DNA of 64,000 nucleotides from Antedon mediterranea (taxonomy: Eukaryota > Animalia > Echinodermata): NCBI RefSeq assembly GCF_964355755.1, contig NC_092674.1, positions 11,594,001 through 11,658,000 on the forward strand, read 5' to 3'. Position 1 is the stretch's first letter. Each line of letters opens with the position of its first letter. Positions 16,357-62,893 of the stretch are shown piece by piece. A program made the translations under genes and the position numbers. The notes below the pieces were generated by a model. The model ran no database searches and was not told the DNA's origin. It was given only the letters and a program-made list of their open reading frames with translations.

Positions 16357-16418
16357 GTTGGACTTCTATTTGTTCAGACGATATTCAAATGTTGTGGGTT
16401 CGAGTCCCACCGGAGATA
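16357..16418 (+). pseudogene. 5'-truncated tRNA-Arg(UCU)
   Basis: Begins at GTTGGACTTCTA; acceptor 5' strand and D arm missing. Confidence 0.85.
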
Positions 16419-16536
16419 TATTTTTTTTTCCTGCCTAAGAGTTGGCCTATTTTTTAAAGTATTTGCATTATGATAAAAAAAACTATTAATGATGAAATAT
16501 GGTAATACCAAACAATAATTGTCGTGTACGGTAGTT

Positions 16537-16622
16537 GTCTCCGAGGCGCAATGGATAGCGCGTTGGACTTCTATTGTTCAGACGATATTCAAAGGTTGTG
16601 GGTTCGAGTCCTTCCGGAGATG
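16537..16622 (+). pseudogene. tRNA-Arg(UCU) copy 1, probable pseudogene
   Basis: U8>A and T-stem mismatches (GTCCTTCC); 13 nt intron. Confidence 0.7.
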
Positions 16623-16741
16623 TACACTTCTAAAAATTCCTTCCTAGAGTTAGCCTATTTTCTTAATTATTAATCCTGCTTTATGCTAAAAACAATTAGT
16701 CATGAAATATGGTTGTACCAAACAATACTTATCGTGTAGTT

Positions 16742-16827
16742 GTCTCCGTGGCGCAATGGATAGCGCGTTGGACTTCTATTGTTAAGACGACATTCAAAGG
16801 TTGTGGGTTCGAGTCCCACCGGAGATG
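16742..16827 (+). tRNA. tRNA-Arg(UCU) copy 2, intact, 13 nt intron
   Basis: Full cloverleaf, A and B boxes intact, T8 terminator. Confidence 0.9.
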
Positions 16828-16944
16828 TACACTTTTTTTTAAATTCTGCCTAAGAGATGGCCTAATTTTTTAATTATTTCCATTATGCTAAAAAACAATT
16901 ATTAATGAAATATGGTAATACCAAACAATATTCATCCTGTAGTT

Positions 16945-17031
16945 GTCTCCGTGGCGCAATGGATAGCGCGTTGGACCTCTGTGTGTTCAGACGATATTCA
17001 AAGGTTGTGGGTTAGAATCCAACAGGAGATG
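16945..17031 (+). pseudogene. tRNA-Arg(UCU) copy 3, pseudogene
   Basis: U33>C, A37>G, B box GGTTAGAATCC, T/acceptor stem mismatches. Confidence 0.75.
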
Positions 17032-17149
17032 TATACTTTTTTAATTCCTGCAAAAGAGTTAGAATAATTTTTAATTATTAATCCTGATTTATGCTAAAAA
17101 CAATTAGTGAGGAAATATAGTTATACCAAACAATAATTATCGTGTAGTT

Positions 17150-17235
17150 GTCTCCGTGGCGCAATGGATAGCGCGTTGGACTTCTATTGTTCAGATGACA
17201 TTCAAAGGTTGTGGGTTCGAGTCCCACCGGAGATG
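17150..17235 (+). tRNA. tRNA-Arg(UCU) copy 4, intact, 13 nt intron
   Basis: Consensus cloverleaf, T-run terminator. Confidence 0.9.
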
Positions 17236-17353
17236 TACATTTTTTTTTAATTCTGCCTAAGAGATGGCCTAATTTTTAATTATTTGCTTTATGCTAAAAA
17301 AACAATATTAATGATGAAATATGGTAATACCAAACAATATTCACCATGTAGTT

Positions 17354-17440
17354 GTCTCCGTGGCACAATGGATAGCGCGTTGGACTTCTATGAGTTCAGA
17401 CGATATTCAAAGGTTGTGGGTTCGAATCCAGCTGGAGATG
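17354..17440 (+). tRNA. tRNA-Arg(UCU) copy 5, degenerate
   Basis: D-stem GCAC mismatch, T-stem CCAGC mismatch; 14 nt intron. Confidence 0.65.
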
Positions 17441-17558
17441 TATACTTTTTTAATTCCTGCGTAAAAGTTGAAATAATTTTTAATTATTAATCCTGATTTA
17501 TGCTAAAAACAATTAGTCATGAAATATAGTTATACCAAACAATTATTATTGTGTAGTT

Positions 17559-17645
17559 GTCTCCGTGGCGCAATGGATAGCGCGTTGGACTTCTATGTGT
17601 TCAGACGATATTCAAAGGTTGTGGGTTCGAATCCCACCGGAGATG
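17559..17645 (+). tRNA. tRNA-Arg(UCU) copy 6, intact, 14 nt intron
   Basis: Consensus cloverleaf, T6 terminator. Confidence 0.9.
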
Positions 17646-17763
17646 TATACTTTTTTAATTCCTGCCTAAGAGTTGGAATAATTTTTAATTATTAATCCTG
17701 ATTTATGCTAAAAACAATTAGTCATGAAATATAGTTATACCAAACAATTATTATCGTGTAGTT

Positions 17764-17850
17764 GTCTCCGTGGCGCAATGGATAGCGCGTTGGACTTCTA
17801 TGTGTTCAGACGATATTCAAAGGTTGTTGGTTCGAGTCCCATCGGAGATG
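17764..17850 (+). tRNA. tRNA-Arg(UCU) copy 7, T-stem mismatch
   Basis: GTTGG/CCCAT T stem; otherwise consensus. Confidence 0.75.
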
Positions 17851-17968
17851 TATACTTTTTTAATTCCTGCCTAAGAGTTGGAATAATTTTTAATTATTAA
17901 TCCTGATTTATGCTGAAAACAATTAGTCATGAAATATAGTTATACCAAACAATTATTATCGTGTATTT

Positions 17969-18055
17969 GTCTCCGTGGCGCAATGGATAGCGCGTTGGAC
18001 TTCTATGTGTTCAGACGATATTCAAAGGTTGTGGGTTCGAGTCCCATCGGAGATG
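17969..18055 (+). tRNA. tRNA-Arg(UCU) copy 8, intact (G-U in T stem)
   Basis: Consensus except CCCAT. Confidence 0.88.
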
Positions 18056-18170
18056 TAGCCTACACTTTTTAAAAATTCCTGCCTAAGAGTAAGCCTAATT
18101 TTTTAATATTATGCTAAAAAACAATTATTGATGAAATATGGTAATACCAAACAATATTCATCGTGTAGTT

Positions 18171-18250
18171 GTCTCTGTGGAGCAATGGATAGCGCGTTGG
18201 ACTTCTATGAGGACATTCAAAGGTTGTGGGTTCGAAACCCACCGGAGATG
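18171..18250 (+). tRNA. tRNA-Arg(UCU) copy 9, 7 nt intron, D-stem mismatch
   Basis: Intron TGAGGAC (18208-18214); GAGC in D stem. Confidence 0.65.
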
Positions 18251-18368
18251 TATACTTTTTTAATTCCTGCCAAAGAGTTGGAATAATTTTTAATTATTAA
18301 TCCAGATTTATGCTAAAAACAATTAGTGAGGAAATGTGGTTATACCAAACAATAATTAGCGTGTAGTT

Positions 18369-18454
18369 GTCTCCGTGGCGCAATGGATAGCGCGTTGGAC
18401 TTCTATTGTTCAGACGACATTCAAAGGTTGTGGGTTCGAATCCCACCTGAGATG
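18369..18454 (+). tRNA. tRNA-Arg(UCU) copy 10, acceptor-stem mismatch
   Basis: CTGAGAT acceptor 3' strand; 13 nt intron. Confidence 0.75.
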
Positions 18455-18572
18455 TATAATTTTTTAATTCTTGCCAAAGAGTTGGAATAATTTTTAATTA
18501 TTTGCTTTATGCTAAAAAACAATATTAATGATGAAATATGGTAATATACCAAACCATATTTACCATGTAGTT

Positions 18573-18659
18573 GTCTCCGTGGCACAATGGATAGCGCGTT
18601 GGACTTCTATGTGTTCAGACGATATTCAAAGGTTGTGGGTTCAAATCCCGCAGGAGATG
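18573..18659 (+). tRNA. tRNA-Arg(UCU) copy 11, degenerate
   Basis: D-stem GCAC, acceptor AGGAGAT mismatch. Confidence 0.65.
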
Positions 18660-19059
18660 TATGCTTTTTTAATTCCTGCCAAAGAGTTGGAATAATTTTT
18701 AATTATTAACCCTGATTTATGCTAACAATTTTTAGTGAGGAAATATGGGAATAGCCTACACTTTTTAAAAATTCCTGCCTAAGAGTAAGCCTACTTTTTA
18801 CTCGGGGTACCCGAGTCTAGGACTTACTCATTTTCTCCTCTTCTTCTTCAATCTGGACACTATTGAGTAAAAAGTGCGATTTTTAAAGTACTACTCCTCC
18901 CTTATTCGTTGTAGTATTGAGCTGGGATTTGGCATGAACATACTACAGGGACATGTCCTCAAAGCTATAGAGCCGGATTTTTAATTTTTTGTTAATTAAT
19001 TTGTTTAATTAAGAATCCACAATGTGTGACACACACCACAGCGTTATGTAGTTATATGC

Positions 19060-19132
19060 GGCTTCTTGGCGTAGTGGTTATCACGTTTGCTTAACACGCA
19101 GAAGGTACCTGGTTCGAGCCCGGACGAAACCT
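19060..19132 (+). tRNA. tRNA-Val(AAC)-like gene A1, degenerate acceptor stem
   Basis: GGCTTCTTGGCGTAGTGGTTATCACGTTTGCTTAACACGCAGAAGGTACCTGGTTCGAGCCCGGACGAAACC + T8; A and B boxes intact. Confidence 0.75.
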
Positions 19133-19345
19133 TTTTTTTAAACGTTATGGTGAAAAGTACTGTATACGCAATATGATAATTACACACAGTATATCTTATT
19201 TTTATAATTTTTCTAAATACTTATTTTGTGTAATCGGTAATTATCACTTTTACACATGTTTATTTTTCTTTGTGCTTATTACCCTATTCATTTGTAATTT
19301 AAATGGATTAAAAAACTTTCTGTAACCCACATTTTTAGTGTAAGT

Positions 19346-19418
19346 GGTTTTCGTAGTGTAGTGGTTGTCAAGTCTGCTTAACACGCAGAAGGTCCCGGTT
19401 CGAGCCCTGGCGAAACCT
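19346..19418 (+). tRNA. tRNA-Val(AAC)-like gene B1, degenerate
   Basis: GGTTTTCGTAGTGTAGTGGTTGTCAAGTCTGCTTAACACGCAGAAGGTCCCGGTTCGAGCCCTGGCGAAACC; perfect anticodon stem, D and T stem mismatches. Confidence 0.75.
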
Positions 19419-19579
19419 CGGGTTTCTTTTACTTTATGGTGAAATAACTGTATACGTCTGTATACAGCTTCTTTCGCTGTACCCCGAGTATTGCACATTC
19501 GTGCTTTTTTGTTAATTAATTTGTTTAATTAAGAAGCCACAATGTGTGACACACACCACAGCGTTATGTAGTTATATGC

Positions 19580-19652
19580 GGCTTCTTGGCGTAGTGGTTA
19601 TCACGTTTGCTCAATACGCAGAAGGTACCTGGTTCAAGCCCGGGCTAAACCT
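19580..19652 (+). pseudogene. tRNA-Val-like pseudogene A2
   Basis: Duplicate of A1 with anticodon loop mutated to TCAATAC. Confidence 0.75.
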
Positions 19653-19861
19653 TTTTTTTTAAACTTTATGGTGAAAAGTACTGTATACGCAATATGATAA
19701 TTATACACAGTATATCTTATTATTATTTTTTAAAATACTTATTTTGTGTAATCGGTAATTATCACTTTTACACATGTTTATTTTGCTTTGTGCTTATTAC
19801 CATTTATTTGTAATTTAAATGGATTAAAAAACTTTCTGTAACCCACAATTTTAATGTAAGA

Positions 19862-19933
19862 GGTTTCGTAGTGTAGTGGTTGTCAAGTCTGCTTAACACG
19901 CAGAAGGTCCCGGTTCGAGCCCTGACGAAACCT
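19862..19933 (+). tRNA. tRNA-Val(AAC)-like gene B2, degenerate T stem
   Basis: Perfect GGTTTCG/CGAAACC acceptor and TCTGC/GCAGA anticodon stems; D and T stem mismatches. Confidence 0.75.
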
Positions 19934-20088
19934 ATTTTTCTTTAACTTTCTAACTGTATACGTCTGTATACAGCTTCTTTCGCTGTACCCCGAGTATTGC
20001 ACATTCGTGCTTGTTTAATATTTGCATTATGCTAAAAAACAATTATTGATGAAATATGGTAATACCAAACAATATTCATCGTGTAGTT

Positions 20089-20175
20089 GTCTCCGTGGCG
20101 CAATGGATAGCGCGTTGGACTTCTGTGTGTTCAGACGATATTCAAAGGTTGTGGGTTAGAATCCAACCGGAGAGG
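20089..20175 (+). pseudogene. tRNA-Arg(UCU) copy 12, pseudogene
   Basis: A37>G, B box GGTTAGAATCC as in copy 3. Confidence 0.75.
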
Positions 20176-20293
20176 TATACTTTTTTAATTCCTGCGTAAA
20201 AGTTGAAATAATTTTAAATTATTAATCCTGATTTATGCTAAAAACAATTAGTGAGGAAATATAGTTATACCAAACAATAATTATCGTGTAGTT

Positions 20294-20379
20294 GTCTCCG
20301 TGGCGCAATGGATAGCGCGTTGGACTTCTATTGTTCAGATGACATTCAAAGGTTGTGGGTTCGAGTCCCACCGGAGATG
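20294..20379 (+). tRNA. tRNA-Arg(UCU) copy 13, intact, 13 nt intron
   Basis: Same tRNA sequence as copy 4. Confidence 0.9.
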
Positions 20380-20496
20380 TACATTTTTTTTAAATTCTGC
20401 CTAAGAGATGGCCTAATTTTTAATTATTTGTTTTATGCTAAAAAACAATATTAATGATGAAATATGGTAATACCAAACAATATTCACCATGTAGTT

Positions 20497-20583
20497 GTCT
20501 CCGTGGCACAATAGATAGCGCGTTGGACTTCTATGAGTTCAGACGATATTCAAAGGTTGTGGGTTCGAATCCAGCCGGAGAGG
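20497..20583 (+). pseudogene. tRNA-Arg(UCU) copy 14, probable pseudogene
   Basis: GCAC D stem, D-loop GG lost (AATAGAT), CCAGC T stem. Confidence 0.7.
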
Positions 20584-20701
20584 TATACTTTTTTAATTCC
20601 TGCCTAAAAGTTGAAATAATTTTAAATTAATAATCCTGATTTATGCTAAAAACAATTAGTGAGGAAATATAATTATACCAAATAATAATTATCGTGTAGT
20701 T

Positions 20702-20788
20702 GTCTCCGTGGCGCAATGTATAGCGCGTTGGACTTCTATGTGTTCAGACGATATTCTAAGGTTGTGGGTTCGAATCCCACCGGAGATG
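20702..20788 (+). tRNA. tRNA-Arg(UCU) copy 15, degenerate
   Basis: D-loop AATGTAT, anticodon stem TTCTA mismatch. Confidence 0.65.
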
Positions 20789-20906
20789 TATACTTTTTTA
20801 ATTCCTGCCTAAAAGTTGGAATAATTTTTAATTATTAATCCTGATTTATGCTGAAAACAATTAGTCATGAAATATAGTTATACCAAACAATTATTATCGT
20901 GTAGTT

Positions 20907-20993
20907 GTCTCCGTGGCGCAATTGATAGCGCGTTGGACTTCTATGTGTTCAGACGATATTCAAATGTTGTTGGTTCGAGTCCCATCGGAGATG
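20907..20993 (+). tRNA. tRNA-Arg(UCU) copy 16, degenerate
   Basis: D-loop AATTGAT, GTTGG/CCCAT T stem. Confidence 0.65.
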
Positions 20994-21118
20994 CATACTT
21001 TTTTAATTCCTGCCTAAGGGTTAAGAGTTGGAATAATTTTTAATTATTAATCCTGATTTATGCTGAAAACAATTAGTCATGAAATATAGTTATACCAAAC
21101 AATTATTATCGTGTAGTT

Positions 21119-21205
21119 GTCTCCGTGGCGCAATGGATAGCGCGTTGGACTTCTATGTGTTCAGACGATATTCAAAGGTTGTTGGTTCGAGTCCCATCGG
21201 AGATG
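21119..21205 (+). tRNA. tRNA-Arg(UCU) copy 17, T-stem mismatch
   Basis: Same tRNA sequence as copy 7. Confidence 0.75.
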
Positions 21206-21323
21206 TATACTTTTTTAATTCCTGCCTAAGAGTTTGAATAATTTTTAATTATTAATCCTGATTTATGCTGAAAACAATTAGTCATGAAATATAGTTATAC
21301 CAAACAATTATTATCGTGTAGTT

Positions 21324-21410
21324 GTCTCCGTGCCGCAATGGATAACGCGTTGGACTTCTATGTGTTCAGACGATATTCAAAGGTTGTGGGTTCGAATCTC
21401 GCCGGAGATG
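21324..21410 (+). pseudogene. tRNA-Arg(UCU) copy 18, probable pseudogene
   Basis: D stem disrupted (TGCCGC...AACGC), T stem CTCGC. Confidence 0.7.
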
Positions 21411-21522
21411 TATGCTTTTTTAATTCCTGCCAAAGAGTTGGAATAATTTTTAATTATTAACCCTGATTTATGCTAAAAATTTTTAGTGACGAAATATGGG
21501 AATACCAAACAATCGTGTAGTT

Positions 21523-21609
21523 GTCTCCGTGGCGCAATGGATAGCGCGTTGGACTTCTATTTGTTCAGATGATATTCAAAGGTTGTGGGTTCGAGTCCCA
21601 TCGGAGATG
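21523..21609 (+). tRNA. tRNA-Arg(UCU) copy 19, intact (G-U in T stem)
   Basis: Consensus except CCCAT; 14 nt intron. Confidence 0.88.
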
Positions 21610-21721
21610 CATACTTTTTTAATTCCTGCCTAAGAGTTGGAATAATTTTTAATTATTAACCCTGATTTATGCTAAAAAATTTTAGTGACGAAATATGGGA
21701 ATACCAAACAATCGTGTAGTT

Positions 21722-21808
21722 GTCTCCGTGGCGCAATGGATAGCGCGTTGGACTTCTATTTGTTCAGACGATATTCAAAGGTTGTGGGTTCGAGTCCCAC
21801 CGGAGATG
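21722..21808 (+). tRNA. tRNA-Arg(UCU) copy 20, intact
   Basis: Consensus cloverleaf, 14 nt intron. Confidence 0.9.
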
Positions 21809-21929
21809 TAGCCTACACTTTTTAAAAATTCCTGCCTAAGAGTAAGCCTAATTTTTTAATATTTGCGTTATGCTAAAAAACAATTATTGATGAAATATGG
21901 TAATACCAAAAAATATTCATCGTGTAGTT

Positions 21930-22015
21930 GTCTCCGTGGCGCAATGGATAGCGCGTTGGACTTCTATTGTTCAGACGACATTCAAAGGTTGTGGGTTCGA
22001 GTCCCACCGGAGATG
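21930..22015 (+). tRNA. tRNA-Arg(UCU) copy 21, intact
   Basis: Consensus cloverleaf, 13 nt intron, T7 terminator. Confidence 0.9.
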
Positions 22016-22130
22016 TACATTTTTTTAAAATTCTGGCTAAGAGATGGCCTAATTTTTAATTATTTGCTTTATGCTAAAAAACAATATTAATGATGAAATA
22101 TGCTTACCCAACAATATTCATCGTGTAGTT

Positions 22131-22217
22131 GTCTCCGTGGCGCAATGGATAGCGCGTTGGACTTCTATTTGTTCAGACGATATTCAAAGCTTGTGGGTTC
22201 GAATCCCACCGGAGATG
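22131..22217 (+). tRNA. tRNA-Arg(UCU) copy 22, variable-loop substitution
   Basis: AGCTT instead of AGGTT; stems intact. Confidence 0.82.
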
Positions 22218-22335
22218 TCAACTTTTTTAATTCCTGCCAAAGAGTTGGAATAATTTTTAATTATTAACCCTTATTTATGCTAAAAACAATTAGTGAGGAA
22301 ATATGGGAATACCAAACAACATTAATCGTGTAGTT

Positions 22336-22356
22336 GTCTCCGTGGCGCAATGGATA
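22336..22356 (+). pseudogene. tRNA-Arg 5' fragment
   Basis: GTCTCCGTGGCGCAATGGATA then jumps to spacer-like sequence. Confidence 0.75.
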
Positions 22357-22476
22357 ACGAATGAAAATTCTGCCTAAGATTTTAATTAATTAATTTTCAT
22401 TTTTAATTATTTGCTTTATGTTAAAGAAAATAATTTATGAAATATGGCTATATTAAACAATATTCATTGTGTAGTT

Positions 22477-22536
22477 GTCTCCGTGGCGCAATGGATAGCG
22501 CGTTGGACTATTGTTCAGACGATATTCAAAGGTTGT
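22477..22536 (+). pseudogene. 3'-truncated tRNA-Arg with 3 nt anticodon-loop deletion
   Basis: GGACTATTG instead of GGACTTCTATTG; ends in T arm. Confidence 0.8.
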
Positions 22537-24806: not shown

Positions 24807-26154
24807 GTATTTATCACGCAACCAAGTTCATAGGTCCAAAACCATAACATAAAATACATCTTCGGTCTAAGTCATCCGTAGGGAGATACTGTAGCACTGA
24901 TATAATGTTTATAATTTTATAATTTATAATACTGTAGGCTTAAAGTTCCTAAAATTTTGCAGATGTCCTAGTGGTAAACAAGCTTTAGTAATACTAGCTA
25001 GATGATACAGTATTGGCGATGTCCAAACCAGCTTAATTAGCAAGGAAGAAGCCCTAAGCTAGCAGACTGTTTTGGGAGTTGGCGTTCCATAGGACATAAA
25101 ACTTCCCGTTCTATAATTTTTAAGATTGAATGTATCACGGTTGGTTTGTGACTCCTTTAATAAGAGAAGATCATACAAGTGTGAGTCGGATCGTTATTGA
25201 ATTACAGTCATCATTTTTAATATTCCGCGTGTCATGATTTAAAAAACTACATGACCTGCTATATAAAGTGTTTTTCTATAAATGATAAGGTATTACGAAT
25301 TATTAGAACGCATAACCTACAATTACTATAACCCAGGCTCAGATCTGTTTTATTGGTCCGTTTTAATCCGATTTTATTCGTTATTGTCGGGTTACCCACA
25401 ATGTGTGTAGGCAATAATGTGTTCCATAAGCCCTAAACCTTTTCAATACTTTTTTTCACACAAACTGTATCATCAATTTGATTTGTCTAAGTTTTCCTAA
25501 GTGTTATGTTTGTAGTTTGTTTGTTTTGGGTCAAAATAAAACGAGTTCGAATCTTAGGCTAACCTGAGATTAAATTTATTCTTACAGGTGACGAAAATCG
25601 AAGATAGGCCGCATGAATGCGTCAATGGTGTTTGCTGAGAAACAATAAGATGTTGACGCTTGCTGAATCTTGTTATCTTGGTCCAGACATTATGTTTAAT
25701 CAGATAAATACCAATGATTTCTTTCCAATACCGGTACCAAACAAGAAGGCAAAAACTTTAACAAAGTAACTGTATCTTAGCATGTGAATTGTAGTTTAAT
25801 TAGGCCTATTATACACAGTTACGATAACAAGTATAAAGTTAATTATACGGCGCCGTGTGGATGTACTTTTATCATTTAGGCCTACCCGGTTTCATAGTAA
25901 TTGCAACATTGCACTATATTTTCAATTTTAATTTTATTTTTAAATTATTAGACCTATTTACGCTGTTGATGGAATGAAATAAAAATAATAATTATCAAAT
26001 GATAGATAGAAATGGTGTATGAATCCTTACTATTTGGAACCACGTGGTATTATGTATTTCGATAAAGGCAATGATGACGACATCATGTGACAGCGACGCC
26101 GACGATGTGATGCAATAAGGAGACGGTGACATTCATAATGTTATTACAATCACA

Positions 26155-26169
26155 ATAATGATGATGATA

Positions 26170-26201
<32 letters not shown>

Positions 26202-26416
26202 AATGATGAAGATACTAATAACGATAATGAGGATAATAATGATGATAATGATGATGATAATGATGATGATAATGATGATGATAATGATGATGATAATGAG
26301 GATGATAATTATGATGATGATGATGATAATGATGATAATGATAATGATGATAATCATGATGATGATGATTATGATTATGATGATGATGATGATGATGATG
26401 ATTATGATGATGATAT
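26155..26416. repeat. Imperfect (ATG/ATA)n trinucleotide microsatellite
   Basis: Visible ATGATGATAATG run; explains the poly-M, poly-I and poly-H ORFs. Confidence 0.95.
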
Positions 26417-27500
26417 GATACTGACAAGAAAAAATGATGATGACATTGACGATGATAGGGAAGATGATAACTTTCAATTACTAGAAAAACAAATTTAAAA
26501 TAGTTTGCTATCAAGTGATTGCAATAAGAAATTGTAGCTAACATATATCATGGACTGAAGAATTCTAGTTTTTGGTTCATGATATAAAGGATTTATCATG
26601 CACTGTGTCACCAAGATTCTTCTGATATAAAATGAATGAATGAATAGCGCATAAAATATCTCTATGTTCTCAACATCGAAAAAAGAATTGCTGTAGCCCT
26701 TAAAGATGTATTGTGCCCCTGAAAAAATAATTCTTACAAAATTTTTTGTTGAATATTCCATTTTAGTGTAACATAATAGTTATCCACTTTAAAGAAAAAT
26801 TGGATAAAAAAAAATGGTATTTACCTGAAAAAATGTAATTTAAAGCAAAAAATGGTCAAATTGGCTGCCAACCAATGGATTTTTGGTTGAAATTAACCAT
26901 TTATTTTGTCATTTTATAAGTGAGAACATGATTTTTTTTCATTTTTTTTCCTATGGAAGTTTATTAAAACTACAAAATAACATATTCAAAGTCTGATTTA
27001 ATTAATCTTCATTTTTCATGTTTTTGGGGGACAATACATCTTTAATGGTTTGTTTTCTCTTTTCTGTAAGCCTAATTGTAGAGGTGATGGACTATCTACC
27101 GATCCTATTTGCTCTTTATCTACATTGATAATAGTAAGGTAAGGTATGTCTACTATACAAATCATCCTTATCGTTTAGTTAGAAGACGCAATGTCATTGA
27201 TCACAACATATCAATGCACTTTTAAGTTTATTCAATCAATCAAACTGACGTTGTGCCGGAAATTCAAATTATGCATAATATGAAATTAGATTTAAATTTA
27301 AAATTCAAACTAGTTTTCATAAACACACCTTAAGTATACGAACATCAGCTTCCAAGAAATTCAATAATAAAAGCAATTGAAGCGCCAAAATATCATAATA
27401 TTGGTTTCTCATTTTTTATCTGACTGTAACCTACTTTTAGGCATAACTGTTCTTTTTCGAAACAAAATTGTATGATCCTACTATATTAGGCCTACAAAAT

Positions 27501-32616: not shown

Positions 32617-35600
32617 TTGGGTACACGTATAAAACATGTGATGCTGTATTACCGAATACCTAAGATACTGCAGAAAGATACAGACGGAGGATCGTGTGAC
32701 AAGAAAAATAGTTGACGATTTCCCGTGTAGAAATGCAGCCCTGGAACGAATACACAGCTTGGCCTGGTATCGAACTCCAAACCTCAAGGTCGGCATTTCT
32801 TCTGTTCATTAAGTGTATAAAATTGGTAGTTGTCACTAAAATCTAAAATTATACATTGAGTTGTTCATTTACAATTGACAGGTTTTACACCTGCAATGTA
32901 ATAGATATAACTCCATTTATGACATTAGTTTATCCATGGAGGTTTATTTTTTCCTCCATGGTTTAGCTGCTATCACGTTGCTTCGCAAGCATTTGCTATC
33001 ATAGTTTAGGCCTATAGGTAAAATCATGCATGAAAATAATTAACGTTATAAATGTAAAAGTCGTTTCTGAAAGTTTATCAACTCTATCCTAGTTTTGTTT
33101 ACTTTAACCGTAGATTTTGTTCATAAATTCTTTTTTAGTGTGTTTATTTTTTTTCTGGTAATACAATAATATTGCATTTCATGGCAATAGATTATTCTAC
33201 AAGTTTAATGAATATAGTTTTAAATGTTAAAGATTAATTTAAAAAATAACATTAGGGTGATTGTATAGGTCTGTTTAATTTAAAACACGTTAGAGATTTA
33301 ACAGTAGTCTTGTTTATTTGTTGTTAAGTAGATTTGTAGAGATAAAGTGAGCGGTTAATCGCTTGATTAAAAGCGCCGACTCTTAGAAGTAACAAAGTTT
33401 AATTTGATTACAGTAAACAAAGATAATAACAGTGTTTAGAAAACAATAATTTGTAGTGACTCAAACTTAAACTTCTAATTTAATCTTAACTTGTATAATT
33501 ATATATTTCTTGAGTTTCTTGTATGAATTTTCCACATTTAGACCTACTTTTCCGTGAAAGATATTTTAGTATATATTACTGTTAAGAATTAAAACACTAT
33601 TTCACATCAGAAATTGGCTTGCTTCGTCATTTTTCTGAAAACATATACATGTACTGTATTATGATTTTTAATAGACTTATTTCGTTTTCTGTCTGTTTAC
33701 TTATAAAAAGTACAGTACATCTACGTGCAAGAAGAACCGTGCAAGAATCTTACAATATCGTCTGTTAATGGATTAGTTTAACACCAAATACCATGGTTAT
33801 TTATTTTAAAGAAAACACGATCCATGTTTTGTCGAATATTGAAAACAGAATTCGTTATATTAAAAAGTACAGTTGAATTAGTTCATTACATTTACTTGAG
33901 CGAATGACTGTAGAATTAGATTGGCTTATTAGATGATTACGGGTTGTATAGCTCTTGTTTCTTTTGCAATTGACAATAGAAGTCATATTTTAGTTTCCAA
34001 ATTTTCGCTCCAGGGGTTTTCAATCAAAATTGGCTTCCTATACCCAAAGGGCAAAAAGCCAAATAAGCATAACCTCCTATTTTGTTTACTTTTGAAAGCT
34101 AACCCCTAAAACAGAGCCATGTTGAATGCACTCCCTCGGCGCATTACAACAACCCCCACCGCGGTTTAAGCCTAACTTGTATGGCACTTTTAACTTCATT
34201 TAGAGTCCCTCGAGGGTTGTTGTGTCATCCACACCAGGGTAGGTGATAAATGTATAAAGCAAAGTTATTGTTACTAAATGGTTCAAAAAGGAAATTATAG
34301 AAATAAAAGGGATATTTTAGTTAAATAATAAAAGATCAAAATGTATACGGTTCAAATCTGTTTGCTAAAACAGGCCTACTGGAAGCAATAGTAACATACA
34401 GCCTGTTGTACCGTCTCACACTAATTTCTGATAAATTGGCATCACATGATATCCAAAGAAAAATATTTTGTTTAATTTACAAGATAGCTTAAAAAAGATT
34501 TACACTGCTACTTTGGTAATTAAAATATTTGGCAAATCAATGTTTTAGACCTATAATTTAAATACCGGTACACTAAAAACCACTATAACACAAATGATGT
34601 CAATATAATGTTATATAAATTATGTGCACATTATTGCAGTCCATTGTTTGAGAATCGAATTAAGTCAAGTTACTATTGAAATAATACAAAACTTAAAATG
34701 GCAATTGTTTATTTGTTGAAGTATAAAAGCATGAAGTAAGAAAGCGAAACATTGTGTTGGTTCCAGAGATTTGTAAAATGCTTAACTAATTAACAGTGTA
34801 CCCATAAACTGTTTTTGTTTGGCTTCTTTTGTTAATTCATTTGTACCAATTAATTGATTCGTTCTTGGGCGCATATAGTTTAGTTTTAATTTCACTTAGG
34901 CCTATAAACAGACAAAATAAACAAAAAACCATTGTCTGCTTTAAATTACAGGATTTTCTAGTAAAATAATTTTTCATCAAATTTAAGGAAATTGAATATA
35001 TATTATGTGACATTAGAATGACATATTCAACAAAAAAGATATAGAAAGCATTTTTTTCAGAGGTGACAATATATCTTTAACATTATCTACATTGCTACAT
35101 TAAGTAAATTGAATGGGGAGGGGTGAGGGAGTTGGTGGATTTACGTAATAACCTGTGTTTAGTCAGGTGATGTTATTTAATACACTTTTACTATATTTTG
35201 TTTTGTATTCATTTGTGTAAAGTAATGATCTACTGTATGTATCGATGTAAATTGGGGGTGGGGGAGGGGGTAATTTTCTGTTAATTGTTATATTTTATAT
35301 TGTTATTGTGAAGGATGCACCTTTGTGCTAAGTGTGCCACCGATCTAAAGGTGTAATTCCAAATAAATAAATAAAATAAATAAACAATAACATATTATGT
35401 CTTATATAATTAATTGTCTTATGGTGTCTAATATAAATGTCAATAGTCAACGCATAGGTTACACACTGAGTGACAATAAAAATGAGAGGATGAAAAAGTG
35501 ATTCAATTTGATACTACAACTTCCATTAAATGACAATCGTTATCTGAGTTATAGCATCACTGTTATCAGTTAACGAATTAACTGCTTATTTCAAAGAGTG

Positions 35601-36000: not shown

Positions 36001-37861
36001 TAACAAACAAATACAATTTCAACAATGTTTTAACCATATTATGTATAGTATATACATATATATATATATTTAAAAGTTTATGTTTAGACGTGTGTAGGGT
36101 CCTAGACGAGTGAATGTCACCTCCCGATTCTCGTCCGTGAAAATAAACAGCACTACACCTGCGTTTCTTGCTGACTATAACATTTCTCCTACATGGCGTG
36201 CTGACACTTAGGCCTTCATAGTATTTTTCAAATAAGTTGCGGTAGGCCTATGTCATGTTTTTTTCTGCAAACCAGCCTACAAATTACCGTATAAAATACA
36301 AATATTCGTATGCCAGCTTATTTCATTATAATTCTAGATCTGTAGAATACATTTATCAAAACAATAGATAGAGTAGTAGTTACACGGTATTAATTAATAT
36401 TAATATAGCGTTCATTTTAATCCCCCACACCCGACTGTAGGCTGGATAGACCGCCTTTAACCACCACCCTAAAATATTGTCGAATTGAAATAATAAAATT
36501 AATTTGATTTCATTATAATGTATCATTGGCCTAACTTTTATTATTAAATTCTTCTACTCATTTTTTCTAATTCATATTGCTTATAATTTGGTTTAAAACT
36601 GATTTCTCATTGTACCTGATTTGAAATGGGACACCGGCTCAACAAAATTGTTATTCATTCATTTGTGATTTTACACGTTGTTTACATGCATAAAGGCTTA
36701 TAAGAATAACAGTTTATAAAACAACCTCTAAAGTATTCACTCTTGCTGACGTAACACCATCGCCTAATTATCTAATGAGTTAATTAATGTTATTTGACTA
36801 CCGCCTTTGAAGTAGCAATGATATACCCTATTGAAATTAATCCCCGATTAAAATGCCGCTCTTTCAAAGAATTTTTAAAACTAAGCAAATAGTATAATAG
36901 TGTTATTAAATAGATAAGCATAATTCGTAAATAGTCAAGAAATAGATACCAAACGTCATAATGTAAACCTACTAACCCAGAGGAAGCATTGTCTTGGTGT
37001 GTATAGGTATTGAAATGAAAACAAATATCAATAGGGGCCTACTAAAGTAGACCTTATTAAACAAGATTTAACCATGCCAATACATGCAGCTTCAGTGCTA
37101 CCTTATTCAGCAGCGATTAGGCCATTGGTTTCTTACCGTTTATCTCTACTTGTTAGTCTTATTAGGCCTAGCATTTGTTTTGGAGGAACACATTTTCGTG
37201 GTAGGCCAATTAAACTAAATCATTTTGCACTTTCTGTCTTACAAATAAAGGGGTAAACAAGTGTGGTCGCCAAGGATCTGAACATATTTTAATTTTCTTT
37301 GTTTAACTTTTGTTTGTATTTTTAACATTATTTTGAATTATTATTAGGTCTTTGTAAAAACAAATACATAATAATCACAAGGAACTAAATAAGAAAAATA
37401 AACTTTCATTCATATTAAACAACCCATAAAGTAGAATATACCTAGACCTATTCAATATTCGAGGGAAGAGTAAAACTCCTGGTTATTCCCCAGTGCACTA
37501 CCCTTTACCATGCGTTTATTGGCTAATTATCAGTAATTATCACCAATTATTCCTACGTTTATTTTAAATCTTACAATAATTATAAACAATACAAAACGCA
37601 AATAGTAAACAATAGCCCTTTGACTAAATGCGGTAGCGAAATAAGATCAAAGCGGCGGTAAGTGATGATGTCGACTAAGAAGTACATACAATACAAATAT
37701 AGGTAAACGAAACAACAATCTATTTTACAAACACATTTTTTTAGTACAGTCTAGAGTAAAAGTAGGCCATTTTACAGTTTTAATAAAGCTATACACTTCC
37801 TAAAAAAATAATGAATAAAAATAATGATTTTGCATACAGTTTTAAAAAATAAAAAAAGTGT

Positions 37862-38229
37862 TATAGTGTGTGGACAGAGCTTTAAAGGATATTCGTCCAA
37901 ACACATTTAAGATGCAACATTTATTAGAAGCAAAGAAATAAAAACAAAAAGTAGAGGCCTATACTAACTTATTGTTGATTATTTTATGGATTGATTTTGA
38001 TGAATTATCATATTGAATGTGTGCAAAATTGATTATAAAAATTATATAGTGTGTGGACAGAGCTTTAAAGGATATTCGTCCAAACACATTTAAGATGCAA
38101 CATTTATTAGAAGCAAAGAAATAAAAACAAAAAGTAGAGGCCTATACTAACTTATTGTTGATTATTTTATGGATTGATTTTGATGAATTATCATATTGAA
38201 TGTGTGCAAAATTGATTATAAAAATTATA
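37862..38229. repeat. Tandem duplication, 2 x 183 bp
   Basis: TATAGTGTGTGGACAGAGC... at 37862 and 38045; no differences seen. Confidence 0.93.
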
Positions 38230-42810: not shown

Positions 42811-42994
42811 AAGCTTAATTACCTTTAATTCAATCGTATACTAATACAAGTAATAAGTATTCTGGCTGAGTTGTATTTTAAGTGTCACTTGGAGCGGTTC
42901 GCTCCAGAAGTATATTTTTGACCAGTAACAAGTTTAGTCCAGTATACTACGGTACAATTTGCAATCGAAAAAATTGAAGAAAACTGTTTAGAAA

Positions 42995-44072
42995 ATGACC
43001 ACCGAGGCGTTGCAGACCCCTTACATGGATCATTCTCTTGGGAAGTGCAACCTTAGATATGCAGTAGACGTAGGCCAGAATTTTAATGTTTCTGGGTTTG
43101 GTATAACCCATCCACACCACCCAACGGCAGATACCGGCGGTGATAGTATCACATTGAATCCTTACAGCATGGAAGGTTCACATCTCGGTGCTCTGAAACT
43201 TAGCCCAACGCATATGACGGAACATACGAATGTTTCGCAACCAAACTACAGCAGTCAACAAGTCAACGGCTACGTATCGCATCCTCACCCCCATCCACAT
43301 CATGGAGTTAGTGGTTATGCTCCACAGCCCTTCGCCACAGGACGTGATTTCCTATTGAGAAGGGACCCACTCTCAGGTCCAATGTCGCGTGGCGGACTAC
43401 CAACACACGATGGAATGACAACAAATTCAGCAATGTTTCCAACTAGTACCTCTTATCATGGACCACATACAGACGCTGGCTCGACAGCCCATGTTATATT
43501 TCCTGGTTTGCACGAGCAGGCCCCAACTGGTCATCATATGAATGGACAAATGCGGTTAGGTATTCCCGGGGATATCCACCCCAGACATGACCAGTATAAT
43601 CCAATGCAGGCCACAAGGAATGATTATCTCACGTCTTCCATGACATCACAGCTTCATAATACGCACATGAACCACATGAATGCAAACATGAACAATTACA
43701 TGAATATGGGAGCACATGGACCTGGTGCATTCTTCCGATACATGCGTCAACCAATAAAACAAGAACTTAGTTGCTTATGGATTGATCAAGACCAGCCCGA
43801 ACCTAGGAAACCGTGCAACAAATGTTTTACAACAATGCATGAAATTGTAACACACATAACTATTGAACATGTTGGCGGACCTGAACAAGCCAACCATACA
43901 TGCTTCTGGCAAAACTGTCCTAGAGAACAAAAACCATTCAAAGCAAAATACAAGCTTGTGAATCACATTCGAGTACACACCGGCGAAAAACCCTTTCCTT
44001 GCCCGTTCCCAGGATGCGGAAAAGTTTTTGCAAGATCAGAAAATCTGAAAATTCACAAGAGGACACATACAG
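42995..44072 (+). CDS. Zic: Zic (odd-paired family) C2H2 zinc-finger transcription factor, coding exon 1
   Basis: ORF has GALKLSP, ZOC-like [29 protein letters not shown] and zinc fingers 1-3 (CLWID...[14 protein letters not shown]...[45 protein letters not shown]). Donor ACAG|GTATGT at 44072/44073, phase 1. Confidence 0.97.
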
Positions 44073-47000
44073 GTATGTGAAGTTTGCTAAATATTTTTTC
44101 TAATTTCTCATATTATTCCTAAATTGAGGCAATTTGTTGCAAGACTTAATAAGTATTATATACTATAAGTAATGCGTTATTGTAATGGTAAATGTTAATT
44201 TTCAACAACTGCTTTAAAATGTGTCACAATGATGTCTCTGAAATCACAACAAAGATTAATTTCTCATTTCTCCAAAATATTTCTTTTTAATTTCAAGTTT
44301 AATAAAGTAATCAAAAGTCAGTTATTCTAGATAGTTCAATAAAATATTTTGTTCCGCAAAGTTAAACAGTTTATTTATGTTTACTGGCTTAGTTACTAGG
44401 CCTCCAGGACAAGAGAGTTTAATTTCAAAAGCTAACGGAAAACTGACATAGCTTTTTCTTTGGATGAGAGATATCTGAGAAATTTTAGCTCTTGGTCCCT
44501 CCTAAAACGTCATTCCAGCGAAGTTGCCCTTCAATATTATATTTCAATATGGCTTTCGAATCAAGCCAAAATGTTAAAACTTTCCTACAGTTCTTCAGTG
44601 CGCCAATAAGTTTGTTTCTTATCTCTGATTTATGGGCGCTCTAAAACGACAAATATCTCTTTTATAAATAATATAAAATATTACATTACAATTAAATTGT
44701 AACCGTGCTTAATTACTTTAGTTAATTATTATTAATATTATTATTATTACTCACTGTTAAATAATATTGTATACCAAGATAATCAGTGCATTTACATTAC
44801 ATTAGGCCTACATTGTTATAATGCAATATTTCAGAGATCTTACAGAGAAAAGTTTATTGTCGCAAGACTCTTTGAAAAACAAAATATCACAAACCAAGTT
44901 TTTGTTACAGATATAAACGCTACAATTTGTATTGATATTAAATTAATTATGTAAGATGTATAATTATTATCTATTGGCACTCGAGGAAGTTCACATGGTT
45001 TATTGTTGGATAGGCCCATTCAACTAATTACATACGACGAGGCTATGGTGCTAATAAATTACAAGTCAAGACGATTTAATGGGTGTTTTACGCGAAAAAC
45101 TTAACACCTATACTTCCCAACAAATCAACTTTAATTGACAATTAGGTGAAACACATTATGTTTAATCTCAATTAGAGTGGCTACCACAATTGAAACATTA
45201 GTATTAATTTTTCTTCTTGAAAATTAACAAAACATAACAGCAATGTATATGTATTATGTAACGAAAAAGTCAAGGAAACCGAATTGCGTACCCGGCACCT
45301 TCCAACTACTTACGTAATCGCTAAAGAATGTTAAATTGATGAATAATAATATTATTTAAAAAATATTTCATTCACTTGTACCTCAATTATTAAATGTTAA
45401 TGTTAAACTAAGGTAACCTTAACAAATAGGCCTTCTTATTATAGCAAATAACGTTTATCTTCGTTTCAGTATGCTATGTTTTGTCACATAACTCCCAAGC
45501 AATTTTGATTGATGAAAAATGTGTGTATGTTTTTTTTCTTAATTAGGCAGTTCGCCTGTAGGTTTCATTGCGTAATCCCGCCATCCGTAACAGGGATTAA
45601 ATACTCTCTAAACTAATCTGTGTCTTTCACCAAGGAATTAAAACTTTTAAAATAAAGTTTGCAATGAAATAAACAGGACGAGTAGTAATAAACATCATAC
45701 AGTTCCTATAGGCACACCGCACCGAGACTCCGTATACATTTGTATAGTTTATCATGGGTGTTTAGATTTTAGTTCCTAGTGAAGTTCATTGTAAAATATA
45801 ATAAACGAATCATATCCTATTTTAATCCTTTTTTTAAACCACCTACCCCCCTCTCCCCACTTTAACACCCCGATACAGTATACTAGAAAAGTATATGATT
45901 TGTAAACACAGAAACATATAATTATTTCTGAGTGAAAGATTTATTACCGGATAAAGAAACAGTGACCAGGAAAATCCATGATTCCAATAATAAAATAATA
46001 GGCCTACCCTTAATATTTAAAAAAAAGTATACAGATTTGAACACAAATAAAATTTAAGTTGATTAGGCCTAATAATTTAAAGAAATATCATCCAATATCC
46101 TGTCGGTTGGCGGCGTATTTGTTTTGTTTTATACCATGATAATTGGATTTCATTAGATTAGTGACGTCATCATGACAGCATTGTGTATTATTATCACATC
46201 AAGTGCTTTTTTGTATATTTACCTCTTGTGATTATTATTCATCCACAATTAAATACTAAAGTCAGTCTGTTAACCAAACATACAAAGGTACACACACAAT
46301 AGCATCAAGGGCATGTTTCATTAGAAATATCAAGTAATATACGTGGTCAACGATTCTACTTATACGATACTTCGATCATCAACTTTTTATAGTTGATTAA
46401 TAAATAGAGTAAAAGTATTAATTAACTGTAATAATATTGTACTGATAAAAAAGTGTTTTATCCAAATAGTTTACAGTATGTATAGCATGCCTCTATTATA
46501 CAGTACACTTACAACTGCAGAAATAAGTCAATCTTTCAACACTCCATTGTTAGTTATTCGGATATTATTGTAGGACTTAAGCCTACATGTATCCTATTTC
46601 TATAGTGATTTACACCTTCGAAGTGATGATAGGCGTGCATGCCTTGTTATTTAGTACGCGTCGTTGATTTTACTGTGGGCCTAGCTATGGCTGTAGGAAT
46701 GGGCCACTTTTGGCAGGCCTTACAAACGGGTGACAATCACTCAATTAGAATTAAGAGATCATAAGTTTTGTTGTATTCTGTCACAGATGTATTGTGAAAT
46801 GTGAAGTACTTCCACAGATGGAATAACTAATCTGTTTCTTTACCCTTCACAAGTTTATTGAAGTAAAACAAGGACCAACATGATTGACGTTTACAATAAA
46901 TTTGATTATCTTTAATATATTATCAAATTTGAATAATTAACTTAATAATTTACTAATAATAACTGGTAAATAATATCTGTATGATATCTGAATAATATAT

Positions 47001-50000: not shown

Positions 50001-51223
50001 TTGATAATGCTGTTAGGAGAACATTCTCACAACCGGTGATAATGTAATAATGAATAATAATCATAAATCATAATTAAAACATGATTAAAGTGTAATAATT
50101 CGTTGCATTCCGTAGGCTACGTTTCCAGTATGTTATTCGTTACGGTATCTCAAAACCGGAAACAGCGAAATGCAGTCGTCGTCTAACTGCGCTGCCACAA
50201 CACCAGCGTATTTTGACTAAACATTACAGTAGGCCTAAGGTTAACCAAGGCCAACGTTTTTATCTAAAATTTAGAAGAAATATGCCCTGTCATTGCTAAG
50301 ATTCTCTTTCTGTAAGCAGACTTCTTAATTTCCTGACAGATAAATTCACAATTTAATTAAAAAAATTAAAATAAAATGTCTGTTTAGCTTGCCTGGAGTA
50401 TCTAACAACTTGACGATTAAGCCCCTTCTTAACAGTCATCGCAATCCCCCATCTCCGGTTTAAGTAGTCTGCAGATCTCAAAATTGTTTAATTACAAGTT
50501 TTATATAAATTGTAATAAGATGTATGTTTATTGATAGATGGTCATTATGTTCTATTGAGAATCGAGTAAAGCACGAGGACCTGAGGGATAGTGGCAGTAG
50601 ATTTACATTTCCTGCTGTTGATCCTTTTTTCCTCTACTATTTTTATAAACCTTTATTTTGATTGGTCTATGAGCATGCGTGAATTATTATTGCAGGTTAA
50701 CGAAAAGTTATAACATGAACACTTGTCGGACTGTAAAGCCGAATCATTCCACCCATGTTTTTGTATATATCTATAGGCCTAATAACAAAATTTGCCTACA
50801 GTGATTTTTTAAAAAACTTTATAACATTTTACTTAGAGCATGCACAATATTGTGTAGGCCTGTATCCCCACGAAGAAACTTTATTACAAAAAAATATAAC
50901 TAACTATGCAGATAGTGCATTGTAGGCCTAATTGTGCAATGGTTAAATACAACCTTCAATGTTAACAATAAAGATGAAACAGCTGTCGCGATTGCTTGAC
51001 AATAATATTTTGTATATAATATTACACATTAAGAATTGTTCCTATATAATATATTGTTTGTACTAAAATCTTAACACCAGGGTTGGGTCTAATAAATGTT
51101 ACCAGTTTTGTAATATAATAATTTCGTTATATTTTTTGTTCATGTTTGTTGTTTATAAAAAGTACATTCGTTTGACGTTTTCAATACAGTACGGTACTAA
51201 CGAATTCTTTACTTATTTTTCAG

Positions 51224-51663
51224 GTGAAAAACCGTTCAAGTGTGAGTTCGATGGCTGTGATCGCCGTTTTGCTAACTCGAGCGACCGCAAGAAACACAGT
51301 CATGTACACACCTCGGACAAACCTTACAACTGCAAAGTTCGTGGATGCGACAAAAGTTACACCCACCCTAGCTCATTACGAAAACATATGAAAGTACACA
51401 GCAAGTCTCCACCACCACCCGGACTGTTTGAAGATTCATCTCCAAAAGCTTCACCCAACGCGACGCAAACGGAGGACATCTCTATCACGACGGTATCGTC
51501 AAACCCGCCTAACATCAATGAATGGTACGTCTGTCAGACGACGGGTGGCATGCCTACACCACCCAGTAACGAACATTCTCCTGTTAACTCGAACTCTACA
51601 TCAATAACGACTGGATTACATAATAATAATAACAACTCAACGACGGTAACAAATTTGATATAG
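51224..51663 (+). CDS. Zic: Zic coding exon 2 (zinc fingers 4-5 and C-terminus)
   Basis: Branch point TACTAAC (51195-51201), pyrimidine tract and CAG acceptor at 51221-51223; G|GT GAA AAA restores [61 protein letters not shown]; C-terminal NINEWYVC motif; TAG at 51661-51663. Spliced CDS 1518 nt = 505 aa. Confidence 0.97.
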
Positions 51664-61198: not shown

Positions 61199-61572
61199 TT
61201 AAATCTTAATTTTTTTAAACATAACATTGTCATTTGTACCAAGTTTCCTCAATGAATGTTGATTGCCAAGTTGTGTTCTAAACATCTTTAGGTGTTTGTT
61301 AGTTCTTTCTGTTTGCAATACACCAAGTCTGGTAAGAAGTCTATTGCAAAAAATTGGAATAATAGGCTGGAGCAAGAGACTACATATTCTAAGTGAATCC
61401 ATAGCAACATGGATAACAGTATCGAGCCACGCCCTGTTTTCATCTGTTGGATTTTTCACAAGTGTCCATGGTTCATGTTGCTGAATGAAGGCATTTGTAA
61501 GGCGAAGGCAAGACATGATGGCCTCTATGCTTTTATAAGGTTTGAAATCTTGGTAATACTTATCAACCAATT
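61199..61572 (-). CDS. MARS2: MARS2 terminal coding exon
   Basis: ttttcag|AA TTG; LVDKYYQDF...NAFIQQHEPWTL...SLRICSLLLQPIIP...MFKKIKI stop; AATAAA overlaps the stop codon. Confidence 0.92.
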
Positions 61573-62216
61573 CTGAAAAGAAATAATAAATAATGATTCT
61601 ATGAAAATTACCTAATGGTACAATTATAGCACATTAAATAAATCATTGTGGCAAAGTACAGTTGTAAAAAAAGCGTCAGTCAGTTTTTTTAAAGCTGATT
61701 TTGTGGTAATGAGGTTTTGCTAAAAAATACTATGGTATATGGCCAAAATCTAACATAACAATAGAGGGCACTACAGAAAACTCTCATCTCATGCACGCAA
61801 TTTCTACTAAAAATTTTAAACCTTGATTACAAAAAAAAAAAAGAAGCTGGCCCTAGATTTCATCAAATTTTGAGTTGGTTGGGATTAGTCAAAATAACTT
61901 GTTTACGCCTACATTGGATTTGAGAAAACATTTTTTCATTAAAGGCTGTAGGTTATCATAATAGTTCTGGGATGAAAATTGTTCTTTTGTTTTCTATAGG
62001 AAGATACGTATCTATCATCATTCGTTATCGACCTAGTATAAACAGGCTTTTATCCTTATAAGGGTGTGCGTGCGTTGGACTACTGTTTGTGAGATTGTGG
62101 GGTTGAACACATGGGTACTTGGTAAGGTCAAGACACAACTTTGCGCTGATTACTAGCTACATTATGGGAGTATGACTGGGGTAAAAATATCTACAGAAGT
62201 TGCTATTGTTAGTTCA

Positions 62217-62500
62217 TTTTTATACTTGGTGACCTCTTCAGTCAAAGACTGATCTCCCAGAGGGCCCAGTTGGTGATCAGTGGCAGTGATGTACTAATAC
62301 ACCGGGGTAACCCCCTACTTGTCTCGAAAGATGTACTAGGTTCTTTTAAATGCACACGAGACCTACGGTTTATAGTCCTTATCCGAGAAGACTCGTTCTA
62401 CCACCAGAAACATGGAGTGAGTGAGCCTCGAACTCTTGCCGATGTTATGGCTACGTAATTACGGTTCCACTGTCTTAACCGCTCAGCCACTCACTCACAC
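62217..62500 (-). mobile_element. tRNA-derived SINE with Nin/Deu-type central domain in MARS2 intron
   Basis: Minus strand: A box TGGCTGAGCGGTT, B box GAGTTCGAGGC, then TCGGATAAGGACTATAAACCGTAGGTC...TAAAAGAACC...GTAGGGGGTTACCCCGGTG resembling the Nin/Deu domain as I recall it. Confidence 0.7.
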
Positions 62501-62593
62501 AAGTTCCAGGTTTAACAGCATTAGGCGCTTTATAAATCCAGGTTATTATTATTATTAAACATAATAATGAATTTGCATGAATACTTGAGTCAC

Positions 62594-62809
62594 CTGGCAA
62601 ATGTTCTAGTTTTTCTAACAATTCATAATCTTCTTTTGTAGCTCTTGATCGGCAGCTACCATCTGGATGAATTGGGAACAAATCAGTGTGAAACTCTGGA
62701 AATGTTTGATCAGGGTTTAGTGACCTTGCTGTGACCCTTGAAAGAAGATTTCCAAAAGTGTCTGCTAATTCCGCATTTAAAATGGCTGCAATTTTCTCTT
62801 CCTTATAAT
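62594..62809 (-). CDS. MARS2: MARS2 internal exon (start of anticodon-binding domain)
   Basis: cattag|AT TAT, DYKEEKIAAILNAELADTFGNLLSRVTARSLNP...EKLEHLP, donor G|GTGAC; phase 1 on both sides, compatible with neighbours. Confidence 0.92.
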
Positions 62810-62893
62810 CTAATGAATAAACATAAATGTTAATATCACTGAAAAGAATTAAAGTTTTCATAAAAAAAAGCAAATTAATATCAATATTCTTAC

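Follow-up and report, generated by a model that had tools for sequence, protein, structure and literature searches.

Can a DNA transposon carry tRNA genes and spread them through an animal genome? This question is raised by a 1.2-kb insertion with four tRNA-Val-like copies inside a tRNA-Arg gene array of Antedon mediterranea. The initial annotation had read the insertion as a Helentron-type element that spreads tRNA-Val genes. Our analysis confirms the feature and indicates that it is a mobile element in many copies, and that what it spreads is tRNA pseudogenes. We refer to the whole 64-kb stretch of DNA that was analysed (GC content ~30%) as the window. Parts of this stretch were found in 17 public sequencing runs from six studies, and the contigs of six runs (X14, X1, X2, X3, X6 and X10) were analysed; the remaining runs were eight with minor shares (X4, X5, X7, X8, X9, X11, X12 and X13) and a further three from sample S14. 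X14 was taken as DNA because the non-genic flank was covered and contigs reached up to 27 kb, and it may come from the same sample as the window.

Insertion site and element ends

Of 24 tRNA matches reported by Rfam for the window, an array of ~205-bp units (16360-22530, plus strand) accounts for 22 and the insertion for two. The array genes contain introns and are of the tRNA-Arg(TCT) isotype, which we read off the sequence by eye without a tool call; the labels Pyl and '???' that ARAGORN gave to array genes were rejected as intron artefacts. Several recurring spacer types are present in the array, and a truncated unit stands at each end. The insertion, consisting of a 5' part and two cargo blocks, spans 18795-20016 on the plus strand according to the empty-site alignment and to a boundary at 18795 shared with X14 contigs, its exact extent being ambiguous within the terminal Ts. 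Its flanks align to array spacers, placing it inside the tRNA-Arg array as annotated, and the joined flanks align to two empty paralogous sites. Both empty sites named in the initial annotation are real; the first begins at 18091, and the second begins at 21844 rather than 21845. The empty paralogues have six Ts where the filled site has five on the left and three on the right, and the T-run is preceded by C at the filled site and by A in the paralogues. Compared with the two empty paralogues, the filled site shows no target duplication, as had been proposed for an insertion into a T-run. With a paralogous unit near 21700-21810 as reference, a 107-bp deletion was found at 18751-18752, ~43 bp 5' of the insertion, by which one whole tRNA-Arg gene was lost.

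The element ends are marked by 12-bp subterminal inverted repeats (subTIRs). The 5' copy (18799-18810, plus strand) starts 4 nt from 18795 and pairs perfectly with 19479-19490 and 19985-19996. Allowing up to two mismatches, the 64-kb window holds no subTIR copies beyond this one forward and these two reversed, nor any further copy of the termini, and in 3000 shuffles of the terminal pieces no inverted match exceeded 10 bp. Together with a nested 7-bp inverted repeat, the 5' subTIR is predicted to fold into a hairpin (18800-18816, plus strand; 7-bp stem, -6.9 kcal/mol with DNA parameters). It is followed by a CTT/CCT microsatellite (18835-18849, plus strand), whose length varies among copies (indels at 18839-18844 in X14 contigs). 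Two 3' hairpins with a 4-bp stem lie at 19493-19504 and 19999-20010. The final 3' terminus (19985-20013, plus strand) runs from the subTIR at 19985-19996 through the second of these hairpins and TTG into a T-run, and in one X1 contig the terminus is followed by the same G-T-T and then by a different flank. The 11 stop-to-stop ORFs of at least 100 aa all lie outside the insertion.

Seven features of HINE sequences are therefore present (subTIR, nested inverted repeat, 3' stem-loop, microsatellite, T-run, fixed boundary and non-coding character), and because of this structural match we file the element as a HINE. The subTIRs, both kinds of hairpin and the T-run ends listed in the initial annotation were all found, and its assignment to the HINE/DINE-1 architecture holds. 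In the available text of Thomas et al. (2014; PMC4067079), HINE/DINE-1 elements, among them those of mites and Drosophila, likewise have subTIRs near the 5' end (11-15 bp long and set 2-4 nt inward at the 5' side; 12 bp here), a nested inverted repeat and a 3' stem-loop, enter T-runs with variable numbers of Ts and without target duplication, and lack coding capacity; Helentrons are also listed there for echinoderms. The 3' subTIR begins 29-32 bp from the element end, closer than the 38-60 bp of the mite HINEs in that text and within a right module of 60 bp as defined for oyster HINEs (PMC7492417). The oyster Cg_HINE elements, as far as the available text describes them, share a left module of subTIR, inverted repeat and microsatellite and a right module of subTIR and palindrome, their group 2 combines related ends with unrelated interiors, and short arrays occur (PMC7492417).

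Cargo blocks and tRNA-Val copies

The 5' part (18795-18988, plus strand) is common to tRNA-free family members, as seen from loose contig ends behind 18982 and 18988 and from contigs that span its junction with the cargo. The rest is a block of ~510-520 bp, made of tRNA-Val A, tRNA-Val B and a 3' terminus, which occurs twice as had been claimed (block 1, 18985-19504; block 2, 19505-20010; both plus strand). The junction of the 5' part with the cargo (J1) lies in the T-run at 18985-18988. The junction of the cargo with the 3' terminus (J2; 19448-19465, plus strand) holds an 8-bp direct repeat, and 26 X14 contigs are loose before 19463, the position at which tRNA-free members join the 3' terminus. 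The internal 3' terminus (19463-19504, plus strand) comprises the subTIR at 19479-19490 and the hairpin at 19493-19504 and leads through a third junction (J3) into block 2. J3, a 3' hairpin followed by a T-run, resembles the junction left by any HINE insertion and was also found in X1, X2 and X3; J1 and J3 share the T-run at which they lead into the cargo. An alignment of the two blocks over 505 columns shows 21 substitutions (4.2%), of which six fall in 144 tRNA columns, 15 in 319 spacer columns and none in the 42 columns of the terminus. The tRNA and spacer parts diverge alike (Fisher p=1.0), and an unchanged 42-bp terminus has a 14% chance at the background rate. Block 1 departs from the X14 majority at 11 sites; block 2 has the majority letter at eight of the 11 and the other three fall in gaps.

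All four tRNA-Val-like copies lie on the plus strand. A1 (19060-19132), B1 (19347-19418) and B2 (19862-19933) are tRNA-Val(AAC) pseudogenes, and A2 (19580-19652) is a tRNA-Val-derived pseudogene with two anticodon-loop changes. ARAGORN called three of the four, and two passed the Rfam cut-off of 29 bits (A1, 28.5; B1, 39.0; A2, 22.6; B2, 42.1), compared with 53-59 bits for the ten best array tRNA genes. Cloverleaf pairing is damaged in every copy, with five non-standard pairs each in A1 and A2 and four each in B1 and B2; those of B2 lie in the D and T stems, its acceptor stem being intact. A T-run follows A1. Consensus A- and B-box motifs are matched by all four copies, and one of the six tRNA changes between the blocks falls in the B box of A2. 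Thus, the initial annotation was right that four tRNA-Val sequences are aboard and that their boxes are kept while their stems decay, but its reading of them as tRNA genes is not supported. Box retention as a sign of selection was rejected, since descent alone explains the four matches.

Several of the lesions appear to be shared across the family. Among the best 40 of 41 rows of X14 variants, none of 5% or more falls in either subTIR or at the lesion sites 19066, 19070, 19367 and 19371, and one of 7% lies at 19062. The scarcity of variants at these five sites suggests that the lesions are older than the amplification. Broken stems, lesions apparently fixed in the family and spacer-like divergence together argue for a HINE subfamily that spreads tRNA pseudogenes and not working tRNA genes, so that the proposed spread of tRNA genes is not supported. 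The anticodon-loop change of A2 (position 19092) accounts for about a quarter of the X14 depth, in 15 contigs, pointing to possible subfamilies of cargo blocks.

Family members in public contigs

On 18745-19530, 2650 X14 contigs were aligned. Among the best 19 of 133 rows of loose ends, at least 31 contigs depart from the element exactly at 18795 into differing flanks (agreement 0.39); no X14 row for the 3' flank was among the matches listed. In X1, at least six contigs have other 5' flanks and at least one has another 3' flank. A shared boundary with heterogeneous flanks indicates that the 5' end is dispersed. The expectation that the termini recur elsewhere was thus confirmed, by the X14 contigs for the 5' end and by the one listed X1 contig for the 3' end.

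Most family members appear to lack the tRNA cargo. In X14, at least 11 contigs leave the element at 18982 and at least 12 at 18988, and at least 26 enter at 19463, all of them from or into tRNA-free sequence; three joints bypass most or all of the cargo, and contigs of X1 and X2 follow this tRNA-free path too. These exits and entries indicate that the family has a tRNA-free form and that the Val pair replaces its interior between J1 and J2 (~19463). Over the 5' part, summed X14 depth exceeds that over the cargo two- to threefold, and the tRNA-free form appears to be the commoner one. Its interior has a similar ATGACGTC motif at each end, suggesting central repeats, and holds a TGACGTCA palindrome, which we take to be a CRE site. 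Two rearranged members were also observed in X14: the 5' hairpin alone is joined to the cargo in one (joint 18820-18988, depth 1686), and the end of Val B is joined back into the 5' part in the other (joint 19417-18929, depth 522).

Matches in runs from other sources were considered as possible horizontal transfer, namely those in X1, X6, X10 and X3, which are labelled as organisms A, B and C and aquatic metagenomes, and in the unlabelled X2. This was rejected, for the cargo depth in these runs is 2-33 and the sequence is that of the X14 majority, which trace DNA would explain. Short AT-rich X10 matches near 18975-19007 were dismissed as chance.

The cargo itself is multi-copy. For X14, the summed depth amounts to 427 in the first bin of the flank and to 0.42-0.74 million in most bins of the cargo, values that give bounds only since overlapping contigs are counted many times; an estimate of ~1,000 cargo copies from this depth was rejected for the same reason. 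The depth drops at 19339-19365 and 19420-19473, where block 1 carries private changes. At four spacer sites, the mean X14 depth per contig is 14,000-15,700, compared with 180-510 for most single-variant contigs. Taking 200-430 per single locus, we obtain at least 33-78 cargo copies with an upper bound of 750-1,960, counts that do not equal dispersed loci as the contigs cannot tie the cargo to distinct flanks.

The join between the 5' part and the cargo was examined on 75 bp around J1, where 211 X14 contigs aligned. All of the eight listed pieces (the best 8 of 211) cross J1; at least seven crossing pieces, with depths of 204-1388 and one to three differences each, sum to ~10-20 copies, the best of them covering 32+30 letters and none reaching the bridging bar of 31+31. 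With at least seven such variants, it is unlikely that the cargo is private to this copy, which would have spoken against the initial annotation. No contig of X1, X2 or X3 showed J1; in these runs the start of the cargo comes after a 3' terminus, through J3 (depth 29 of 33 in X1, 2.1 in X2 and 3.3 in X3). J3 is therefore probably a commoner entry to the cargo than J1, and tandem or read-through copies may dominate.

Origin, alternatives and known relatives

The locus is a 1.2-kb non-coding insertion with HINE ends in a T-run, its ends and cargo are multi-copy, and we consider it probable that it moved as one unit with a Rep/helicase acting in trans. Scans of metagenome contigs, prokaryote genomes and viral contigs with the terminal patterns of the element, in search of an autonomous partner, gave only chance matches or nothing. 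The 3'-end pattern had three matches in metagenome contigs, rejected as DNA of 58-70% GC, and one in prokaryote genomes, rejected as chance, none with any likeness beyond the pattern; the 5'-hairpin pattern had no match in viral contigs.

The junctions suggest a simplest course of events by which such a form may have arisen. A tRNA-free element would have entered a T-run ~75 bp upstream of a tRNA-Val pair of the host, creating J3. Replication would then have continued beyond the 3' hairpin and through the Val pair before rejoining the last 42 bp of the element at a short homology, creating J2 and giving the captured DNA a fresh terminator. Host DNA seems to end at J2, judging from its 8-bp direct repeat and from the common 3' flank of Val A and Val B up to this point. 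The unit of Val A, Val B and 3' terminus would thereby have become repeatable, because each terminator can be used or bypassed. A deletion between T-runs would have dropped the old interior together with the first terminator, creating J1 and the present form, which would then have been copied to new T-runs. Alternatively, filler DNA may have replaced the interior directly, followed by looping at the T-run; such replacement is discussed for HINEs in the available text of PMC7492417. Terminator read-through is proposed for HINEs (PMC4067079), and in experiments with the Helraiser Helitron it occurred in ~11.7% of events (PMC4778049), according to the parts of these papers available. The exact order of insertion, read-through with rejoining, formation of a repeatable unit, deletion and copying is tentative, and we would put it slightly below an even call.

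Other readings of these data have to be weighed. The cargo may chiefly be a tandem satellite, a 520-bp unit of Val A, Val B and the HINE 3' end amplified at one or a few loci, of which the ~10-20 mobile copies capped by a 5' part are an offshoot. The entry through J3 in X1, X2 and X3 fits this, as does, in our reading, the X14 depth, which does not rise at J1-specific positions as expected were J1 dominant, and HINE repeats akin to classical satellites are known from the available text of PMC7492417. On the other hand, J3 is expected too in dispersed full-length elements that read through the terminator, the blocks here have diverged from each other, and the J1 join occurs in several variants. 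Moreover, this copy was inserted cleanly into its site, and the satellite would alter the number of loci and not the mobility. We regard it as possible, if rather unlikely. A later gain of the cargo is improbable: a tRNA-free HINE would have been inserted first and received the Val blocks by gene conversion or ectopic recombination, and the cargo would never have transposed. The existence of the apparently commoner tRNA-free form and the common ends, which permit exchange, are compatible with it, but several J1 variants would demand repeated conversion, and the 5' part and the blocks depart similarly from the X14 majority (2-3 of 190 and 11 of 520 sites). A tRNA-derived SINE or a MITE is very improbable despite the tRNA-like heads with A and B boxes and the short inverted repeats, for the tRNA copies are internal and paired, with spacer on both sides, and are accompanied by neither a tail nor a target duplication as in a SINE, while the inverted repeats lie asymmetrically and inward of the ends, have a 3' hairpin beside them and, judged by the empty sites, lack the target duplication of a MITE.

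A role of the cargo itself deserves separate attention. The tRNA sequences might have been kept as a putative Pol III promoter or TFIIIC site that aids the element through open chromatin or by steering it to tRNA clusters. Besides the boxes matched in all copies, two entries of the family into tRNA spacers seem to have taken place (at J3 and at the present site), and 5S Pol III promoters are retained in Cassandra retroelements, which are clustered close to 5S loci (available text of PMC7215508). Such selection has in our judgement only a small chance: the tRNA parts diverge like the spacers, one change even falling in the B box of A2, the T-richness of tRNA spacers would by itself attract HINEs, the at least 31 other 5' flanks are heterogeneous, and none of the 17 listed runs is on record as RNA, in a run search aimed at DNA. 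A wider version would be a subfamily of Helentrons, its dispersed insertions numbering tens to hundreds, that acts as a putative mobile Pol III promoter cassette, in which the paired Val boxes bind TFIIIC, spread insulator-like sites and draw the element to tRNA clusters, and the unit seeds a tRNA-derived satellite; we hold this to be unlikely. The tRNA sequences are likely neutral passengers of the HINE, with A and B boxes kept by descent.

Helitron-class elements capture fragments of protein genes. The cargo described for HINE/DINE-1 elements is likewise of histone and other protein-gene fragments (PMC4067079), whereas here it is a tRNA pseudogene pair. In oyster Cg_HINE elements the units are central repeats of 140-180 bp, whereas the present unit is tRNA-derived and includes the 3' terminus (PMC7492417). 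A text search found no occurrence of 'tRNA' in the available text of PMC4067079 or in the available text and supplements of PMC7492417, figure content lying outside the search. In the open-licence PMC and bioRxiv literature, an element of this class with tRNA cargo is a rare case; this cargo and a repeat unit that includes the terminus set it apart from the described HINEs. Closest in kind is a tRNA-Cys cluster on annotated Helitrons in Arabidopsis, for which tRNA repeat units and amplification by Helitron terminator bypass were proposed; it is a single locus, was unconfirmed by three Helitron finders and consists mostly of expressed genes, in contrast to the present element, which has empty sites, ends that are both defined and dispersed, and a pseudogenic cargo (PMC10701932, available part). 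Cassandra TRIM elements are also non-autonomous, carry sequence derived from Pol III genes, form tandem arrays and lie near related host genes, but they are LTR retroelements with 5S sequences in their LTRs and conserved promoters, while ours is a DNA element whose tRNA cargo bears no sign of conservation (PMC7215508, available part). The Helraiser Helitron shares the 3' hairpin terminator and the capture of downstream DNA by bypass; it is a canonical Helitron whose bypass events stop at new termini, whereas this element of Helentron type uses its own terminus again (PMC4778049, available part). Two SINE-related satellites with tRNA-related regions are tabulated in the part of PMC9659126 available.

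The element provides a DNA-level route, without reverse transcription, to the numerous tRNA pseudogenes and stray A and B boxes in animal genomes. Copies of the cargo would inflate counts of tRNA-Val genes in this genome. With J1, J2 and J3, sequence data suffice to test terminator bypass in Helentrons.

Several other features were observed in the window. Two Zic coding exons lie on the plus strand at 42992-44080 and 51067-51663; the first matches P0001, a Zic protein of Antedon mediterranea, with 100% identity over 360 aa (42995-44074), the next match being 63%, which identifies the host as a crinoid. A pair of ORFs on the minus strand (61199-63032) presumably represents exons of a methionyl-tRNA synthetase. 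A long GAT/GAC microsatellite at 26139-26498 gives rise to low-complexity ORFs. An old AT-rich dispersed repeat is present in three copies that are ~74% alike (26700-26856, 34928-35080 and 58874-58990), and a tandem duplication of ~183 bp with 98% identity lies at 37854-38229.
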